From Heptranchias perlo (taxonomy: Eukaryota): a DNA stretch of 64,000 bases. The stretch covers positions 2,666,001 through 2,730,000 of the forward strand of contig NW_027139623.1 of NCBI RefSeq assembly GCF_035084215.1. Reading direction: 5' to 3'. The notes beneath the pieces are model-generated. The model worked only from the letters and a program-made list of their open reading frames with translations, searched no databases and was not told where the DNA came from. The translations under genes and the position numbers were made by a program. This document shows positions 7,110-56,744 of this stretch, piece after piece; the stretch's first letter is position 1; each line of letters opens with the position of its first letter.

Positions 7110-9778
7110 GTTTTTTTTATTTATTCGCTCATGGGATGTGGGCGACGCTGGCGAGGCCGGCATTTATTGCCCATCCCTAATTGCCCTTGAGAAGGTGGTG
7201 GTGAACCGCCATCTTGAAACACTGCAGTCCGTCTGGTGGAGGTTCCCCCACAGTGCTGTTAGGAAGGGAGTTCCAGGATTTCGACCCAGCGACGATGAAG
7301 GAACGGCGATATATTTCCAAGTCGGGGTGGTGTGTGACTTGGAGGGAAACGTGCAGGTGGTGTTATTCCCATGTACCTGCTGCTCTTGTCTTTCTAGTTG
7401 CTAGAGGTCGTGGGTTTGGGTGGTGCTGTCGAAGAAGCCTTGACGAGTTGCTGCAGTGCATCCTGTGGATGGTACACACTGCAGCCACTGTGCGCCGGTG
7501 GTGAAGGGAGTGAATGTTGAGGATGGTGGATGGGGTGCCAATCAAGCGGGCTGCTTTGTCCTGGATGGTGTCGAGCTTCGTGAGTGTTGTTGGAGCTGCA
7601 CTCATCCAGGCAAGTGGAGAGTATTCCATCACACTCATGACTTGTGCCTTGTAGATGGTGGAAAGGCTATGGGGAGTCAGGAGGTTAGTCACCCGCTGCA
7701 GAATACCCAGTCTCTGACCTGCTCTTGTAGCCACAGTATTTATGTGGCTGGTCCATTTAAGTTTCTGGTCAATGGTGACCCCCAGGATGTTGATGGTGGG
7801 GGATTCGGCGATGGTAATGCCGTTGAATATCAAGGGGAGGTGGTTAGACTCTCTCTTGTTGGAGATGGTCATTGCCTGGCACTTGTCTGGCGTGAATGTT
7901 ACTTGCCACTTATGAGTCCAAGCATGGATGTTGTCCACGTCTTGCTGCATACGGTCTCGGACTGTTTCATTATTTGAGGGGTTGCCAATGGAACTGAACA
8001 CTGTGCAATCATCAGCGAACATCCCCATTTCTGACCTAATGATGGAAGGAAGATCATTGATGAAGCAGCTGAAGATGGTTGGGCCCAGCACACATCCCTG
8101 ATGAACTCCTGCAGGAATGCCCTGGGGCTGAGACGACTCGCCTCCAACAACCACTACCATCTTCCTTTGTGCTCGGTATGACTGCAGCCACTGGAGAGTT
8201 TTCCCCCTGATTCCCATTTACTTCAATTTTACTCGGGCTCCTTGGTGCCACACTCAGTCAAATGCTGCCTTGATGTCAAGGGCAGTCACTCTCACCTCAC
8301 CTCAGGAATTCAGCTCTTATGTCCATGTTTGGGCCAAGGCTGTAATGAGGTCTGGAGCCGAGTGGTCCTGGCAGAACCAAAACTGAGCATCGGTGAGCAG
8401 GTTATTGGTGAGTAAGTGCCGCTTGATAGCACTGTCGACGACACCTTCCATCACTTTGCTGATGATTGAGAGTGGACTGATGGGGCAGTAATTGACCGGA
8501 TTTGATTTGGCCTGCTTTTTGTGGACAGGACATACCTGGGCAATTTTCCACATTGTGGGGTAGATGCCAGTGTTGTAGCTGTACTGGAACAGCTTGGCTA
8601 GAGACGCAGCTAGTTCTGGAACACAAGTCTTCAGCGCTACAGCCGGGATGTTGTCGGGGCCCATAGCCTTTGCTGTATCCAGTGCACTCAGCCGTTTCTT
8701 AATATCACGTGGAGTGAATCGAGTTGGCTGAAGACTGGCTTCTGTGATGGTGGGGATATCGGGAGGAGGCTGAGATGGATTATCCACTCGGCACTTCTGG
8801 CTGAAGATGGTTGCAAACGCTTCAGCCTTGTCTTTTGCACTCACGTGCTGGACTCCGCCATCATTAAGAATGGGGATGTTAACAGAGCCTCCTCCTCCCG
8901 TTAGTTGTTTAATTGTCCACCACCATTCACGACTGGATGTGGCAGGACTGCAGAGCTTTGATCTGATCCGTTGGTTGTGGAATCGCTTAGCTCTGTCTAT
9001 AGCATGTTGCTTCCGCTGTTTAGCATGCATGTAGTCCTGAGTTGTAGCTTCACCAGGTTGGCACCTCATTTTTAGGTACGCCTGGTGCTGCTCCTGGCAT
9101 GCTCTTCTACACTCCTCATTGAACCAGGGTTGATCCCCTGGCTTGTTGGTAATGGTAGAGTGAGGAATATGCCAGGCCATGAGGTTACAGATTGTGCTGG
9201 AATACAATTCTGCTGCTGCTGATGGCCCACAGCGCCTCATGGATGCCCAGTTTTGAGCTGCTAGATCTGTTCTGAATCTATCCCATTTAGCACGGTGGTA
9301 GTGCCACACAACACGTTGGATGGTGTCCTCAGTGCGAAGACGGGATTTCATCTCCACGAGGACTGTGCGGTGGTCACTCCTACCAATACTGTCATGGACA
9401 GATGCATTTGCGACAGGTGGATTGGTGAGGACGAGGTCAAGTAAGTTTTTCCCTCGTGTTGGTTCGCTCACCAACTGCCGCAGGCCCAGCCTGGCAGCTA
9501 TGTCCTTCAGGACTCGGCCAGCTCGGTCAGTAGTGGCGCTACCCAGCCACTCTTGGTGATGGACATTGAAGTCGCCCACCCAGAGTACATTTTGTGCCCT
9601 TGCTACCCTCAGTGCTTCATCCAAGTGGTGCTCAACATGGAGGAGGACTGATTCATCAGCTGAGGGAGGACGGCAGATGGTAATCAGCAGGAGGTTTCCT
9701 TGCCCATGTTTGACCTGATGCCATGAGATTTCATGGATTCCAGAGTCAATGTTGAGGAATCCCAGGGCCACTCCCTGC
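7110..9778 (-). mobile_element. 5'-truncated non-LTR retrotransposon (APE + RT, CR1/L2-superclade), mildly disrupted ORF2
   Basis: ORFs 8317-10002 and 7363-8217 give APE motifs (WVGDFN, LDLVL, SDH) and RT motifs (QGCVLGP, FADD); A-rich 3' end at ~7110; frame broken near 8220-8317. Confidence 0.9.
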
Positions 9779-9784
9779 TTGGAT

Positions 9785-10085
9785 TCCAGTTGAAGGAGCT
9801 GTCCACGACCGACTGTTACCGAATGGCACATTCCAAGGTCCAGGAGTATGTTCTGAGGGACGCACTGAAGTGAGGTGCTGCCTACGTAAAGGTTCTTTGA
9901 GGAAAGGCGACCATGTAAGGACATGTCACTTTGTATGGTACAGAATGTATTAGAAGATATGTACTGTGTTTTGAATTGTAATAATGAGGTCCTGGTTTGC
10001 ACGATCTGTATTGTAATGTCTTGAACGGTAATTGTGACATTTTCATTGAAATGTGTGTATCATTAAATTTTATGAAATAAAGCAT
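9785..10085 (+). mobile_element. 3' end fragment of a Tx1/L1-like LINE
   Basis: Shares CACATTCCAAGGTCCAGGAG..GGACGCACTGAAG with 16630-16730 (AHSKVQEY..RDALK) and ends in TTTTATGAAATAAAA; clade assigned from recall. Confidence 0.55.
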
Positions 10086-48599: not shown

Positions 48600-51500
48600 C
48601 AAAATCACACTCTCAGATTGTCTATATCACAAAGGGGCAACTTTAGCCATGAATTAAATACCAGATAGAAATCACACATGGTACCCGATTGAAAGGTACA
48701 GAATGAATCCCAATAATGTTCCTCGAGATTCCTTTTGAATTTGAGCCCAGAACTCTCACACACATGTGAGTTTAATACATACAGTATCCATTCAAATAGT
48801 GTACCATTCAAATACAATTTGCTGGTGCAAAACTCACGTACAGTATCAGATTGAGAAATGCTGTGACAGTGTAACCTGAGAAACAAATTAGATACTAGTT
48901 TGTAACACTCTTGGTATGAGATTTAAAGATACAGTATCAATTCTGTTCGTCCAGACTGAGATACACATTACACATGAGTCCAAAAATCTTATAAAATATA
49001 ATTTAAAGTTACAGTATCAATTCCTTTAGTGCAGACTGATCTACACATTATATACCAATTCACCATATCATTTTGAAAGATTCATTATCATTCACAACAG
49101 TAATCACAGAAATACACATTTAATACTAGTCCAAAAAGCACACAAATTATCTGATTAAAACCTCCAGCATCAAATCCTAAAGTGTATCCATTTTGACCAA
49201 TTAAATAATGTGAAAATCTATTTAAACATTAAGACATTAAAGCTACTGTATTGAACGCCATAATGTAATCTGAGAGAATAATTGCATACAGATACAGAAT
49301 GAATCTCACACTCAGATACAGTACAGAGACACAGACACAGAATGAATCCCACACTCACCATACTGTACCAGAGACTGACAGATGCAGAAGGAATCCCAAA
49401 CTCACATACAGTACTAGAGGTTGCCAGACATAAATTCAATCCCACACTCAAGTATGGTACAAGAGATGACAGATACAGAATGAATCCCACACTCACACAC
49501 AGCACCAGAGGATGACAGATACAGAATGAATCCCACACTCACACACAGCACCAGAGAATGACAGATACAGAATGAATCCCAAACTCACACACAATACCAA
49601 GAGATTGACAGATACAGAATTAATCCCACACTCACACACAGCACCAGAGAATGACAGAAACAGAATGAATCCCACACTCACACACAGTACCAAGAGATTG
49701 ACAGATACAGAATGAATCCCACACTCACACACAGTACCAGAGATTCACAGGTACAGAATTAATCCCACACTCACACACAGTACCAGAGACTGACAGATAC
49801 AGAATGAATCCCACACTCACACACAGTACCAGAGTCTGACAGATACAGAATGAATCCCACACTCAAACACAGTACCAGAGACTGACAGATACAGAATGAA
49901 TCCCACACTCAAACACAGTACCAGAGACTGACAGATACAGAATGAATCCCACACTCAAACACAGTACCAGAGACTGACAGATACAGAATGAATCCCACAC
50001 TCACACACAGTACCAGAGACTGACAGATACAGAATGAATCCCACACTCACACACAGTACCAGAGACTGACAGATACAGAATCAATCCCACACTAACATAC
50101 ATTATGAGAAACTGCTGATATGGAAATAATTCAACACCCACACACAGTACTGGAGAATGTATATACAGAATGAATCCCACAGAGAAATAGAGTACCAGAG
50201 AGTGACAGATACAGCATGAATCCCAAACTCACATGCAGTACCAGAAACTGAGAGATGCAAAGTGAATCTCACAGTCACCTACATTAGTGCAGGCTGAGGT
50301 ACACATTACGTACCAGTCCAAAAATCTCAGTGTCAGATTGAAAGATACGGTATCAATTCCGTTAGTGTAGACTGAGCTGCACATTATAAACCACTACAAC
50401 AAAACTGATACAGATTCAGACTGAAATATATAGTATTCTATTCATGCAGACTGAGCTCCACATTATATACAAGTTCAAAAATGATACTATCATTGTGAGT
50501 TTAAAGATGCAGTATTCATGCCAATATTGTACCGAGATACAAATTAGATACCAGTTCAGATGTTTCCCAAATTTGACTCACATATTTGTCCAGAAACCTC
50601 ATGGACTCAGAATGAAATGTACAGTTTCAATTCCTTTACTGCAGACTGAGGTACACATTAGATACCAGTCCAAAAATCTCAGTCTCAGTTTGAAAGATAC
50701 AGGATCAATTCCATTCGTGCAGTTTGAGCCACACATTGTATACAGTCCAAAATTCGCATTAGGTATCGTACTGAATGATACAGTATCAATCACATTAGTG
50801 CAGACTGAGGTACACAACAAATACCAGTCCAATAATTTCACAGCAAAAGATTGAAATGTACATTATCTTCACAGAGATTAAGATGGAATCCTACAACAAA
50901 ACTCACACACGTTGTTTGGTTAAAACAAATTCAAAAGTGTATCCATATTTACAAATTAATGCTAGACAAAAGATTTGCATATATTAATGAATTAAAGATA
51001 CAGTTTCAAGCATCATACTGTAACCTGAAATAAGAATACAGAACGAATCCAGACTTGCACTTTGCCCAGAGACTGAGTTACAGAATTAATCCCCCACTGA
51101 GATAAAATACCAGAGACTGACTGTCACAGAATGAATCCCACACACACAGATAGAACCAGAGATTGACAAATACAGAATGAATCTCACACTCACACACAGT
51201 ACCAGAGACTGACAGATACAGAATGAATCCCACACTCACACACAGTAACAGAGACTGACAGATATAGAATGAATCCCACACTCACACACAGTACCAGAGA
51301 CTGAGAGATGCAGAATGAATCCCACACTCACACACAGTACCAGGGACTGACTGATACAGAATGAATCCCACACTCACACACAGGACCAGAGACTGACAGA
51401 TACAGAATGAATCTCACACTCACATACAGTACCAGAGACTGACAGATAGAGAATGAATCCCAAACTCACACACAGTACCAGAGACTGACAAATACAGAAT

Positions 51501-51895
51501 GAATCCCACAATCACATACAGTACCAGAGACTGACAGATATAGAATGAATTTCACACTCACATACAGTACCAGAGACTGACAGATTGAGAATGAATCCCA
51601 CACTCACACACAGTACCAGAGAGTGATAGATACAGAATGAATCCCACACTCGCAGATGGCACCAGAGACTGACAGATACAGAATGAATCCCACACTCACA
51701 CGCAGTACCAGTGACTGACAGAGACAGAATGAATCCCACACTCACACACAGTACCTCAGACTGTCAAATAGAGAATGAATCCCACACTCACAGACAGTAC
51801 CAGAGATTGACAGATACAGAATGAATCCCACACTCACAGATTGGACTGGAGACTGACAGATACAGAATGAATATCACACTCACATACTGACTGAC
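48600..51895. repeat. Compound satellite block (46-bp arrays 49280-50275 and 51050-51895; ~80-bp arrays 48600-49090 and 50280-50860)
   Basis: Most homogeneous 46-mer copies at 49700-50080. Confidence 0.9.
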
Positions 51896-52099
51896 ATCTA
51901 CTGGCCATAAGTGAGAACTGTAACAGAGTGGAACAAATTCACATTATCTGTCGTTGTTGCAGATTCAGGACAATGTGCAATGTGCGGAAATAGTTTCTCT
52001 CTGTAACTTCAACACTCTTATTTTTTCATATTTTGTCAGTGAAAAATTAGACAATTGATTCAACGTAATTTAAAAGGGGTAACTAAGCTAAGGCAAGTC

Positions 52100-53050
52100 A
52101 TGGCAGCAGACCTCGCACCCGTGATATGCTCCTCCTGCAAGATGTGGGAAGTCATGGACACTACCAGTGTCCCTGCCGACCATGTGTGCGGGAAGTGTGT
52201 CCACCTGCAGCTACTGACCGATCGTATCTCGGAGCTGGAGCTGCGGGTGGACTCACTGTGGAGCATCCGCGATGCAGAGAAACTCGTGGATAGCACGTTT
52301 AGCGAGTTGGTCACACCGCAGGTAAAGGGTATACAGGCAGGAAGTGAATGGGTGACCACCAGGAAGAGTAAGAGGTGCAGGCAGGTAGTGCAGGGGTCCC
52401 CTGTGGCCATCCCCCTCTCAAACAGATATGCCACTTTGGATGCTGTTGGGGGGGATGACTTATCAGGGGAAGGCAGCAGCAGCCAACTTCCTGGCACCAC
52501 GGGTAGCTCTGCTGCACAGGCTGGGAGGAAAAAGAGTGGCAGAGCTATAGTGATAGGGGACTCAATTGTAAGGGGAATAGACAGGCGTTTCTGCGGCCAC
52601 AACCGAGACTCCAGGATGGTGTGTTGCCTCCCTGGTGCAAGGATCAAGGATGTCTCGGAGCGGCTACAGAACATTTTGGAGGGGGAGGGCGAACAGCCAG
52701 CTGTCGTGGTGCACATAGGCACCAACGATATAGGTAAAAAAGGGGATGAGGTCCTAAAAGCAGAATATAGGGAGTTAGGAGGTAAATTAAAAAATAGGAC
52801 CTCAAAGGTAGTAATCTCAGGATTGCTGCCAGTGCCACGTGCTAGTCAGAGTAGAAATAGGAGGATATTTCAAATGAATACGTGGCTAGAGGAATGGTGC
52901 AAGGGGGAGGGATTCAAATTCCTGGGACACTGGAAACGGTTCTGGGGGAGGTGGGACCAGTACAAACCGGATGGTCTGCACCTGGGCAGGGCCGGGACCG
53001 CTGTCCTAGGAGGAGTGTTTGCTAGTGCTGTTGGGGAGGGTTTAAACTAA
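52100..53050 (+). CDS. CR1 ORF1p (zinc finger/leucine zipper + SGNH esterase)
   Basis: ATG 52100; CSSC..CGKC finger, heptad leucines, VIGDSIV, HIGTND, DGLH. Confidence 0.93.
   Translation: MAADLAPVICSSCKMWEVMDTTSVPADHVCGKCVHLQLLTDRISELELRVDSLWSIRDAEKLVDSTFSELVTPQVKGIQAGSEWVTTRKSKRCRQVVQGSPVAIPLSNRYATLDAVGGDDLSGEGSSSQLPGTTGSSAAQAGRKKSGRAIVIGDSIVRGIDRRFCGHNRDSRMVCCLPGARIKDVSERLQNILEGEGEQPAVVVHIGTNDIGKKGDEVLKAEYRELGGKLKNRTSKVVISGLLPVPRASQSRNRRIFQMNTWLEEWCKGEGFKFLGHWKRFWGRWDQYKPDGLHLGRAGTAVLGGVFASAVGEGLN
53038..53050 (+). other. Candidate -1 programmed ribosomal frameshift site G_GGU_UUA_AAC_UAA
   Basis: X_XXY_YYZ heptamers phased to ORF1 codons; -1 frame open from 53026 through all of ORF2. 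Confidence 0.65.
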
Positions 53051-55989
53051 AGTGGCAGGGGGTTGGGAACCTGAGCAGGGAGAGAGAGGAAAGCGTAACA
53101 GGAAGGGACAGAAGGTATGGAGTAATAGGTAAAGTGTTAAAAAAGGAAAAAGCAGGAACTAAGCGTCACAAAACAGATTTGAAAGTTCTTTATCTGAATG
53201 CACGTAGCATTCGTAATAAAATGGACGAGTTAACGGCACAAATAACTACGTATGGGTATGATCTTGTGGCCATTACAGAAACATGGCTGCAGGGTGACAA
53301 CGACTGGGAATTAAATATGCCAGGGTATTTAACAATCAGGAAGGACAGGCAGGAAGGAAGGGGAGGCGAGGTGGCTATGTTAATAAAGGAAGGAATCACT
53401 GTAATACAGAGAAATGATATTGGGACAAAGCATCAAGATAATGAAACAGTTTGGGTGGAGATAAGGAATAATAAGGGGAAAAAAACATTAGTGGGCGTAG
53501 TATATAGGCCTCCTAATAGTTGCAACTCTGCTGGAAGAAGTATTAATCAGGAAATAGTCGGGGCATGTAATAAGGGAACAGCCATAATTATGGGGGATTT
53601 TAATTATCATATTAACTGGACAAATCAAATTGGGCAGAGCAGCCTTGAGGACGAGTTCATCGAGTGCATCAGGGATGGATTTCTTGAGCAGTACGTAACT
53701 GATCCTACAAGGGGGCAGGCAACCTTGGACCTGGTCCTGTGTAATGAGTCAGGATTAATTAATAATGTCCTAGTTAAGGATCCCCTTGGAACGAGCGACC
53801 ACAACATGGTTGAATTCCATATCCAATTAGAGGGTGAGAAGGTTGATTCTCAAACAAGCGTACTGAGCTTGAATAAAGGAGACTATGATGGTATGAGAGC
53901 GGAATTGATTAAAGTGGACTGGGAAAATAGATTAAAGGGTAAGACGGTACATGAGCAGTGGTGTTCATTTAGGGAGTTATTTTACAACTTTCAAAATAAA
54001 TATATTCCACTGAGGAAAAAAGGGTGTAAAAGAAATGACAGCCATCCGTGGCTAAGTAAAGAAATCAAGGATAGTATCCGACTAAAAACAAGGACATATA
54101 AGGTAGCCAAACTTAGTGGGAGGATAGAAGATTGGGAATTCTTCAAAAGACAGCAAAAAGTAACTAAAGGATTGATTAAGAAAGGGAAGTTAGATTATGA
54201 AAAGAAATTAGCAAAAAATATAAAAACAGATAGCAAGAGTTTCTATAGTTATATAAAAAGAAAAAGGGTGGCTAAGGCAAACATAGGTCCCTTAGAGGAT
54301 GAGACCGGGAAATTAATGGTGGGAAACATGGAGATGGCAAAAATGCTGAACAAATATTTTGTTTCAGTCTTTACAGTAGAGGACACTAAGAATATCCCAA
54401 CACTGGACAAACAGGGGACTCTCGGGGGGGAGGAGCTAAATACGATTAAAATCACTCAGGAGATGGTACTCAGTAAAATAATGGGACTCAAGGCGGATAA
54501 ATCCCCTGGACCTGATGGCTTCCATCCTAGGGTCTTGAGGGAAGTGGCAGTAGGGATTGTGGATGCTTTGGTGATAGTTTTCCAAAATTCCCTGGACTCA
54601 GGAGAGGTCCCGGCAGATTGGAAAACTGCTAATGTAACACCGTTATTTAAAAAGGGTAGTAGGCAGAAGGCTGGAAATTATAGGCCAGTTAGCTTAACAT
54701 CTGTGGTGGGTAAAATTTTGGAGTCTATTATTAAGGAGACAGTAACGGAACATTTAGATAAGCATAATTTAATAGGACAAAGTCAGCATGGCTTTATGAA
54801 GGGGAAGTCATGTCTGACAAATTTGCTTGAGTTCTTCGAGGATATAACGTATAGGGTGGATAAAGGGGAACCAGTGGACATAGTGTATTTAGACTTCCAG
54901 AAGGCATTCGACAAGGTGCCACATAAAAGATTATTACTTAAGATAAAAAATCACGGGATTGGGGGTAATATTCTGGCATGGGTGGAGGATTGGTTATCGA
55001 ACAGGAAGCAGAGAGTTGGGATAAATGGTTCATTTTCGGACTGGCAACCAGTAACCAGTGGTGTTCCACAGGGGTCGGTGCTGGGTCCCCAACTCTTTAC
55101 AATCTATATTAACGATTTGGAGGAGGGGACCGAGTGCAACATATCAAAATTTGCAGATGATACAAAGATGGGAGGGAAAGTAGAGAGTGAGGAGGACATA
55201 AAAAACCTGCAAGGGGATATAGACAGGCTGGGTGAGTGGGCGGAGATTTGGCAGATGCAATATAATATTGGAAAATGTGAGGTTATGCACTTTGGCAGGA
55301 AAAATCAGAGAGCAAGTTATTTTCTTAATGGCGAGAGACTGGAAAGTACTGCAGTACAAAGGGATCTGGGGGTCCTAGTGCAAGAAAATCAAAAAGTTGG
55401 TATGCAGGTGCAGCAGGTGATCAAGAAAGCCAACGGAATGTTGGCTTTTATTGCTAGGGGGATAGAATATAAAAACAAGGAGGTATTGCTGCAGTTATAT
55501 AAGGTATTGGTGAGACCGCACCTGGAATACTGCATACAGTTTTGGTCTCCATACTTAAGAAAAGACATACTTGCTCTCGAGGCAGTACAAAGAAGGTTCA
55601 CTCGGTTAATCCCGGGGATGAGGGGGCGGACATATGAGGAGAGGTTGAGTAGATTGGGACTCTACTCATTGGAGTTCAGAAGAATGAGAGGCGATCTTAT
55701 TGAAACATATAAGATTGTGAAGGGGCTTGATCGGGTGGATGCAGTAAGGATGTTCCCAAAGATGGGTGAAACTAGAACTAGGGGGCATAATCTTAGAATA
55801 AGGGGCTGCTCTTTCAAAACTGAGATGAGGAGAAACTTCTTCACTCAGAGGGTGGTAGGTCTGTGGAATTTGCTGCCCCAGGAAGCTGTGGAAGGTACAT
55901 CATTAGATAAATTTAAAACAGAAATAGACAGTTTCCTAGAAGTAAAGGGAATTAGGGGTTATGGGGAGCGGGCAGGAAATTGGACATGA
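53047..55989 (+). CDS. CR1 ORF2p (AP endonuclease + reverse transcriptase), no ATG before endonuclease motif I
   Basis: Uninterrupted frame: YLNARS, AITETWL, MGDFN, SDH, QHGF, DFQKAFD, PQGSVLGP, FADD, RPHLEY; start given is the first codon after the proposed frameshift. Confidence 0.93.
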   Translation, partial: LKWQGVGNLSREREESVTGRDRRYGVIGKVLKKEKAGTKRHKTDLKVLYLNARSIRNKMDELTAQITTYGYDLVAITETWLQGDNDWELNMPGYLTIRKDRQEGRGGEVAMLIKEGITVIQRNDIGTKHQDNETVWVEIRNNKGKKTLVGVVYRPPNSCNSAGRSINQEIVGACNKGTAIIMGDFNYHINWTNQIGQSSLEDEFIECIRDGFLEQYVTDPTRGQATLDLVLCNESGLINNVLVKDPLGTSDHNMVEFHIQLEGEKVDSQTSVLSLNKGDYDGMRAELIKVDWENRLKGKTVHEQWCSFRELFYNFQNKYIPLRKKGCKRNDSHPWLSKEIKDSIRLKTRTYKVAKLSGRIEDWEFFKRQQKVTKGLIKKGKLDYEKKLAKNIKTDSKSFYSYIKRKRVAKANIGPLEDETGKLMVGNMEMAKMLNKYFVSVFTVEDTKNIPTLDKQGTLGGEELNTIKITQEMVLSKIMGLKADKSPGPDGFHPRVLREVAVGIVDALVIVFQNSLDSGEVPADWKTANVTPLFKKGSRQKAGNYRPVSLTSVVGKILESIIKETVTEHLDKHNLIGQSQHGFMKGKSCLTNLLEFFEDITYRVDKGEPVDIVYLDFQKAFDKVPHKRLLLKIKNHGIGGNILAWVEDWLSNRKQRVGINGSFSDWQPVTSGVPQGSVLGPQLFTIYINDLEEGTECNISKFADDTKMGGKVESEEDIKNLQGDIDRLGEWAEIWQMQYNIGKCEVMHFGRKNQRASYFLNGERLESTAVQRDLGVLVQENQKVGMQVQQVIKKANGMLAFIARGIEYKNKEVLLQLYKVLVRPHLEYCIQFWSPYLRKDILALEAVQRRFTRLIPGMRGRTYEERLSRLGLYSLEFRRMRGDLIETYKIVKGLDRVDAVRMFPKMGETRTRGHNLRIRGCSFKTEMRRNFFTQRVVGLWNLLPQEAVEGTSLDKFKTEIDSFLEVKGIRGYGERAGNWT

Positions 55990-56744
55990 AGCTGAGTTCG
56001 GATCGGTCAATGCCCTGTGGGTGGAGGAGAGGGCCCAGGGGCTGTGTGGCCGGGTCCTGCTCCGACTTCTTGTGTTCTTTAGATTTGTGGTTGGGATCAG
56101 ATCAGCCATGATCTTATTGAATGGCGGAGCAGGCTCGAGGGGCCGATTGGCCTACTCCTGCTCCAATTTCTTATGTTCTTATGTTCTTATTCGAAAGTTG
56201 CCCCATTATATTTCACTCTGCATAGCGCAATATTTCTGTCTGATTTCTCAGGACAGGATTTATATTAATTCAAATAAACCGAACTGAAACACAAATAAAA
56301 ACTGAGCGCAAATCTGGAAGTTTCAGTGGCGACCGTCAAAAGTGAAAGGGATAAAGTATAGAAAAAATTAAAACCGAAAATGCTGGACTCAGCAGGTCCG
56401 GCAGCATCTTTGGAGAAGGGAAGCTCGGGTTAACGGTTCAGGACAATGACCCTTCAATCGATGAGAAAGGTTAATCCGACATAATTTAAATAAGGAACGG
56501 GAATCAGCAGAGGGAAAGACTTCATAAAATCAATTCATTTCACTGAATCCGGGCAATTGTGTCCCGTATCCACTGTACAGATCAGGGGAAATAATAATAC
56601 AAAGGAACAGTTAAATTCAACGTTATGTGGGAAATAAATGAATTATAAATGTATTTGTATATAAATTAGACCCGTTTGTGTTTTGGAAACACTATCCCTC
56701 TGAACATCATCCAATTCGGTTCCAGTCTTGGTGTTTCTGAATTC

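Follow-up and report, generated by a model that had tools for sequence, protein, structure and literature searches.

We have analyzed a copy of a CR1 long interspersed nuclear element (LINE) in a stretch of 64,000 nucleotides from Heptranchias perlo (contig NW_027139623.1, positions 2,666,001 to 2,730,000 of the forward strand, referred to as the window) and found that the end of its first open reading frame (ORF1) carries a putative site for programmed -1 ribosomal frameshifting. A shift at the heptamer U_UUA_AAC, predicted to yield a 1296-aa fusion of esterase, endonuclease and reverse transcriptase, is in our estimate the best explanation for this arrangement, with a probability of about 0.8. 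As far as a comparison of sequences can tell, this otherwise ordinary CR1 copy carries at its junction a real recoding-like signal of deep conservation.

Reading frames at the end of ORF1

The end of ORF1 and the reading frames around it are as described in the initial annotation of this DNA. Two overlapping heptamers, G_GGU_UUA and U_UUA_AAC, both in X_XXY_YYZ phase, precede the stop codon, and the -1 frame opens after a TAG at 53023-53025 and continues unbroken from 53026 to 55989, corresponding to 987 aa. Owing to this TAG, a -1 shift could be productive only within the final codons of ORF1. The size of the fusion, previously approximated, is computed as 1296 aa for a shift at AAC. The first ATG in the ORF2 frame, at 53221 (Met66), does lie downstream of the endonuclease motif YLNARS (53191-53208), eight residues past the Asn aligned to N14 of the LINE-1 endonuclease, a residue that matters for the activity of that enzyme. 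The Pfam Exo_endo_phos match begins at residue 58 of ORF2, which is also matched by the LINE-1 endonuclease.

Conservation of the heptamer in DNA

Loci were collected from the H. perlo genome and from metagenomes, ORF1 ends being located by a profile that omits the last 11 residues. Counts refer to the 123 loci whose ORF1 stop is close to the homologous position; loci lacking such a stop were left uncounted. They fall into 23 clusters, and in 19 of these TTTAAAC stands directly before the stop. The four exceptions are two decayed copies, one element with G_UUA_AAC and one element of another clade. Leaving aside L072, which is decayed, L090, which belongs to the family of L062, and L132, which is of the other clade and has no heptamer, 20 representatives remain, and TTTAAAC precedes the ORF1 stop in 18 of them. 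As strict in-phase heptamers occupy a mere 8 of 1980 upstream codon positions, their presence at the ORF1 end exceeds chance. The second heptamer, G_GGU_UUA, proves lineage-specific, being confined to 4/20 representatives, all of shark families, and thus does not qualify as a general second site.

The test for conservation of TTTAAAC that the initial annotation proposed came out positive at the level of codons, the motif being kept without synonymous change: its silent positions are T in 19/20, A in 20/20 and C in 20/20 representatives, the Leu codon is TTA in 18/19 (background 15%) and the Asn codon AAC in 19/19 (background 35%). Nearby silent positions are saturated, with a third-position identity of 0.22-0.30 between the shark, bird/reptile-like and third groups (labels that reflect our reading of the protein ends), and conserved His, Leu and Gly residues in the vicinity have mixed codons. 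Eight different codons supply the first U of the heptamer as their third base. By this measure, conservation acts on the bases, beyond what the protein needs. In contigs of four runs from four organisms, no variant of at least 5% was seen across 53038-53049 or 53053-53070, and the same contigs do vary at 53032, 53036, 53037 and 53050-53052; note that, with mapping at 80%, copies similar to the window are favoured.

In the consensus library of a study of vertebrate CR1 elements (PMC13343379), 17 of 20 hits for the motif followed by TAA or TAG are located at the ORF1 end, as judged by eye; the search was motif-led and the figure has no denominator. On our reading, the codes of these rows denote alligator, crocodile, bowfin, bullfrog, elephant shark, coelacanth, rays and sharks. 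Searches of viral contigs and genome contigs gave no result.

Esterase-ORF1 elements of another clade are without the heptamer (L132 at ~3689, L129 at ~743 and L113 at ~2946). In L132, known from one informative copy only, the ORF1 end reads UGA-CUG and the same frame reaches the endonuclease motif ~70 codons further on, making this element a candidate for stop-codon readthrough as a route to the same fusion. Three guessed motifs for a junction of this UGA type matched no rows of the consensus library.

Conservation of the ORF1 C-terminus in proteins

Two protein searches yielded 233 ORF1-like proteins, among them 186 that extend to the C-terminal motif of the esterase and 170 that end near the homologous place. 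A C-terminal Leu-Asn is present in 147 of these 170, in agreement with the Ala-Leu-Asn-stop ending that the initial annotation gave for other vertebrate CR1 elements, and the named sources of the homologues include sharks, rays, coelacanth, a teleost, frogs, turtles and squamates. Both residues, L315 and N316, are invariant across 47 aligned ORF1 proteins. They are retained in a second, more distant set, where the distance from the DGLHL motif to Leu-Asn rises from 26 to ~32 residues; as this distance varies, Leu-Asn tracks the stop and not the fold. Among 34 dereplicated ends, ten different residues precede Leu-Asn, each of which can be encoded by a codon ending in U, a test that is weak alone given that position -7 is likewise free of residues that cannot.

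A distant ORF1 group (proteins P0133-P0207) combines SH3-like Pfam hits with the esterase and keeps the Leu-Asn end. Two CR1 ORF1 homologues, P0006 and P0216, are labelled bacterial in NCBI and probably represent animal DNA inside bacterial assemblies.

The linker and its start codons

Between the ORF1 stop and endonuclease motif I lies a linker that is barely alignable between families. It was evaluated in 15 of the 20 representatives, five being omitted for a motif I that is truncated or out of frame. Over ~800 codons it contains 3 stops in the -1 frame, 52 in frame 0 and 61 in the +1 frame, and in 13/15 families the -1 frame is fully open. Upstream of the heptamer, 10/15 families have no more than 1-5 open codons in the -1 frame, leaving the heptamer as nearly the sole entry point; the other five have 13-37 open codons.

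No ATG precedes motif I in 30/32 copies of the window family and in 7/15 representatives, and no near-cognate start is conserved, such codons being scattered among the linkers of the representatives. GTG 53134, TTG 53179 and ATG 53221 were considered as conserved starts and rejected; the GTG, named beforehand as the start that would speak against frameshifting, varies in related organisms (53136 G>T), and so does the ATG (53223 G>A). The contigs of seven runs list no splice-like joint that spans the junction, although contigs are a type of data that cannot show absence. In one shark family (L148, L157, L170) a UAAUG overlaps the ORF1 stop in the ORF2 frame in addition to the heptamer, so that both routes could operate.

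Copies in the same genome

A search of the H. perlo genome gave 811 candidates, of which 40 were scored over 52900-53300, and all 40 were 100% identical to the window across these 401 nt. The CR1 family of the window is thus young and abundant, the split -1 layout is its normal state, and the junction is no decay artefact. Sporadic copies of a sister family (L173 and L174, also L160, L161 and L165) have a G homopolymer of altered length just upstream of the heptamer and, with it, fused frames that read 1290 aa in L173 and L174; assembly error or slippage may explain them.

The region downstream of the heptamer and the proposed mechanism

Past the ORF1 stop a run of five G residues is conserved, with G in 17-19 of 19 sequences at every position, two of which are third positions of the -1 frame. 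The run starts at +11 in 13/20 representatives and at +8 to +13 in 17/20. Over 15 families it has no common local pairing partner. The weak hairpin at 53056-53073 that had been put forward as a stimulator was discarded, its stability being no greater than that of shuffled sequences (z -0.41) and its fold not being shared by other families. A C-rich stretch in ORF1, ~650 nt upstream and recurrent among the best duplexes, was likewise rejected as a long-range partner for want of covariation: in 11 families, swapping the partners gave duplexes as good as the cognate ones (permutation p 0.40). We infer an unpaired or G-quadruplex-type element at the leading edge of the ribosome, and this is the least certain step of the mechanism.

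In the proposed mechanism a minority of ribosomes would slip back by one base at U_UUA_AAC, presumably through tandem slippage of the tRNAs on UUA and AAC in the P and A sites, respectively, and a low slip rate would set a high ratio of ORF1 protein (ORF1p) to ORF2 protein (ORF2p). The shift may be stimulated by the G-run, either through a bound protein or as a G-quadruplex, by the adjacent stop codon, or by both.

Weighing of the explanations

Comparison between families supports the frameshift interpretation of the initial annotation, and none of the refuting conditions named there that were checked computationally spoke against it; frameshifting itself is inferred from these patterns. Several observations weigh against it. 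The representatives are related, so that their counts are not independent trials, and many are single decayed copies. Some ATG is present in the linker of 8/15 representatives, 5/20 have an in-frame ATG no more than 25 nt from the stop (none in the window, and one in the form of the overlapping UAAUG), and three families of the consensus library show TAATG. Two of the 147 proteins ending in Leu-Asn have a preceding Glu, whose codon cannot supply the first U. Unlike most viral -1 sites, the junction lacks a conserved stem-loop or pseudoknot 3' of the heptamer, a structure that the structure-stimulated class has 5-9 nt downstream; z-scores range from -1.86 to +2.29 over 15 families in folds that do not predict pseudoknots explicitly, and folding predicts a G-quadruplex for only 6/15 families.

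The main rival, to which we assign a rather small chance, is termination followed by reinitiation, in which ribosomes would restart near the ORF1 stop at an AUG or non-AUG codon of the ORF2 frame and produce a separate ORF2p with the linker at its N-terminus, the conserved bases being the reinitiation signal. Such a route has been described for L1 and SART1 (PMC2881922, PMC5009743). It predicts an open linker just as frameshifting does, so that this feature fits both, and the ATG codons near the stop in 5/20 representatives together with TAATG in three library families mean that reinitiation may contribute in some lineages. However, four sister shark families carry AAG, ACT, GTA or ATG as the codon that overlaps the stop, a codon that is hence not conserved. 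UGGGA, the upstream motif of reinitiation of the SART1 or termination upstream ribosome-binding site type, occurs at no common distance, being absent within 130 nt in 8/20 representatives and scattered in the others. Reinitiation also leaves unexplained the exact in-phase XXX-YYY-Z pattern of the invariant bases.

That the terminal Leu-Asn reflects a requirement of ORF1p, with ORF2 being expressed by internal initiation or from a subgenomic or spliced RNA, appears very improbable. The invariance of L315 and N316 would agree with it, and contigs reveal neither RNA ends nor strands; yet it is the codon choice and not the residue alone that is fixed, the G-run lies outside ORF1, and a conserved internal start is absent among the representatives. 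Moreover, the esterase of ZfL2-1 functions without Leu-Asn, the active zebrafish protein ending at I302 (PMC3905857). The last alternative, a single fused ORF split by sequencing error or decay, could invoke the few sister-family copies that read as one frame. These differ solely in the G homopolymer, however, and the split layout is kept in 40/40 scored copies of the window family as well as in distant families; the artefact is refuted by the identity of the copies and its probability is negligible.

Programmed frameshifting thus remains our preferred reading for the window element. A wider proposal is considerably more tentative and in our view rather doubtful as a whole: that an ancient clade of esterase-CR1 elements, from sharks and birds to invertebrate-associated families, might make a Gag-Pol-like fusion through an invariant U_UUA_AAC, and that the unpaired G-run at +11 might constitute a new kind of stimulator, be it bound by a host G-run binder or by ORF1p or folded as a G-quadruplex, that tunes the output of ORF2.

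The CR1 copy and its surroundings

The features of the element are collected in Table 1. The initial annotation had called it an intact CR1, and both ORFs are indeed intact; the element as a whole is incomplete, being 5'-truncated at ~52059, upstream of which 8/8 inspected copies have ~300 further common bases. The ORF1 esterase is recognized by PF13472 (E 3.8e-13) and matches PDB entry 4C1B, the solved esterase of ZfL2-1 ORF1 (E 1.2e-43). The closest named ORF1 proteins are from sharks and rays, with a best identity of 76%, and the junction closely resembles rows of the consensus library that are labelled CR1. Units of CTTATGTT at 56170-56191 form the 3' end of the element, a short tandem repeat in this place being a typical feature of CR1.

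Elsewhere in the window, a tandem array of ~60-nt units with CACACA (51100-51890) adjoins the element upstream, a long and distant LINE ORF2 match (24% over 920 aa) occupies 7156-9810 on the minus strand, and many decayed CR1-like ORF2 fragments are spread over ~15 further places.

Table 1. Features of the CR1 copy, in window coordinates
Feature	Position	Strand	Remarks
5' untranslated region (UTR) remnant	52059..52099	+	Copy 5'-truncated; alignment of copies begins at ~52059
ORF1, 316 aa + TAA	52100..53050	+	N-terminal Cys motifs, SGNH/GDSL esterase; C-terminal Leu-Asn-stop
TAG closing the -1 frame, 5 codons upstream of the heptamer	53023..53025	+	
Overlapping heptamer G_GGU_UUA	53038..53044	+	Lineage-specific; 4/20 representatives, shark families only
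Slippery heptamer U_UUA_AAC, conserved; site of the predicted -1 shift	53041..53047	+	18/20 representatives
ORF1 stop adjoining the heptamer	53048..53050	+	Across 20 representatives: TAG 15, TAA 4, TGA 1
G-run GGGGG (53058-53062) plus GGG	53058..53067	+	Begins 11 nt past the heptamer; candidate 3' stimulator
Variable linker, -1 frame alone open	53051..53190	+	Length 39-95 codons over 15 families
Endonuclease motif I, YLNARS	53191..53208	+	Its Asn aligns to LINE-1 endonuclease N14
ORF2 as a -1 shift would enter it	53047..55989	+	Apurinic/apyrimidinic endonuclease (APE) + reverse transcriptase (RT); PF03372, PF00078
3' UTR with terminal short CTTATGTT tandem units	55990..56191	+	Read from sequence

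Comparison with known systems

Elements of the CR1 group are the dominant retrotransposon in most vertebrates (PMC13343379), and the translation of LINE ORF2 has been studied mostly in L1 and SART1. If the predicted fusion is made, it would covalently link a membrane-binding esterase to the reverse transcriptase and hold both proteins in a set ratio, and it would correct ORF2 annotations that begin at a late ATG. The esterase-ORF1 CR1 LINEs of vertebrates described in PMC13343379 resemble the window element in having two ORFs, with an esterase in ORF1 and APE and RT in ORF2, and families of the accompanying library carry the junction motif; the terms frameshift, slippery, overlap, start codon and translation do not occur in that paper. 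In a full-text literature search we found no proposal of frameshifting for CR1; the early papers on chicken and turtle CR1 and the Repbase entries fall outside its scope, and an earlier suggestion is quite possible.

For non-LTR elements (those without long terminal repeats, LTRs) such a mechanism is not new, as TRE5-A and TRE3-A of Dictyostelium are stated in a review to require a -1 frameshift for ORF2 (PMC5911963). Like CR1 these are APE-type elements, although they belong to another host and another element group. Human L1 and silkworm SART1 share with CR1 the bicistronic LINE RNA; there, translation of ORF2 depends on translation of ORF1, and reinitiation gives a separate ORF2p (PMC2881922). 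In contrast to both, the CR1 junction has a slip site and lacks a conserved start.

Among viruses, the nidovirus ORF1a/1b site, as in infectious bronchitis virus, has a heptamer identical to that of CR1, and U_UUA_AAC ranks among the most shift-prone heptamers; the G_UUA_AAC of one CR1 relative matches the G_UU(A) exception of equine arteritis virus (PMC5009743). The logic of fusing a structural protein to a polymerase is common to the nidoviral and retroviral gag-pol systems and to the predicted CR1 product. Unlike those sites, CR1 has no conserved 3' hairpin or pseudoknot, and it is a cellular retrotransposon without LTRs or protease. For the candidate stimulator, since the 2016 review knew of no natural G-quadruplex that stimulates frameshifting (PMC5009743), the G-run is directly testable in this role. 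Its closest parallel is the nsp2 site of the porcine virus PRRSV, where -2/-1 frameshifting is trans-activated through CCCANCUCC, a protein-bound stimulator located 11 nt 3' of the site (PMC5009743). Both systems have a short run of conserved bases 11 nt downstream of the shift site and no RNA structure, but the viral run is C-rich and protein-bound, whereas that of CR1 is G-rich and a candidate stimulator.

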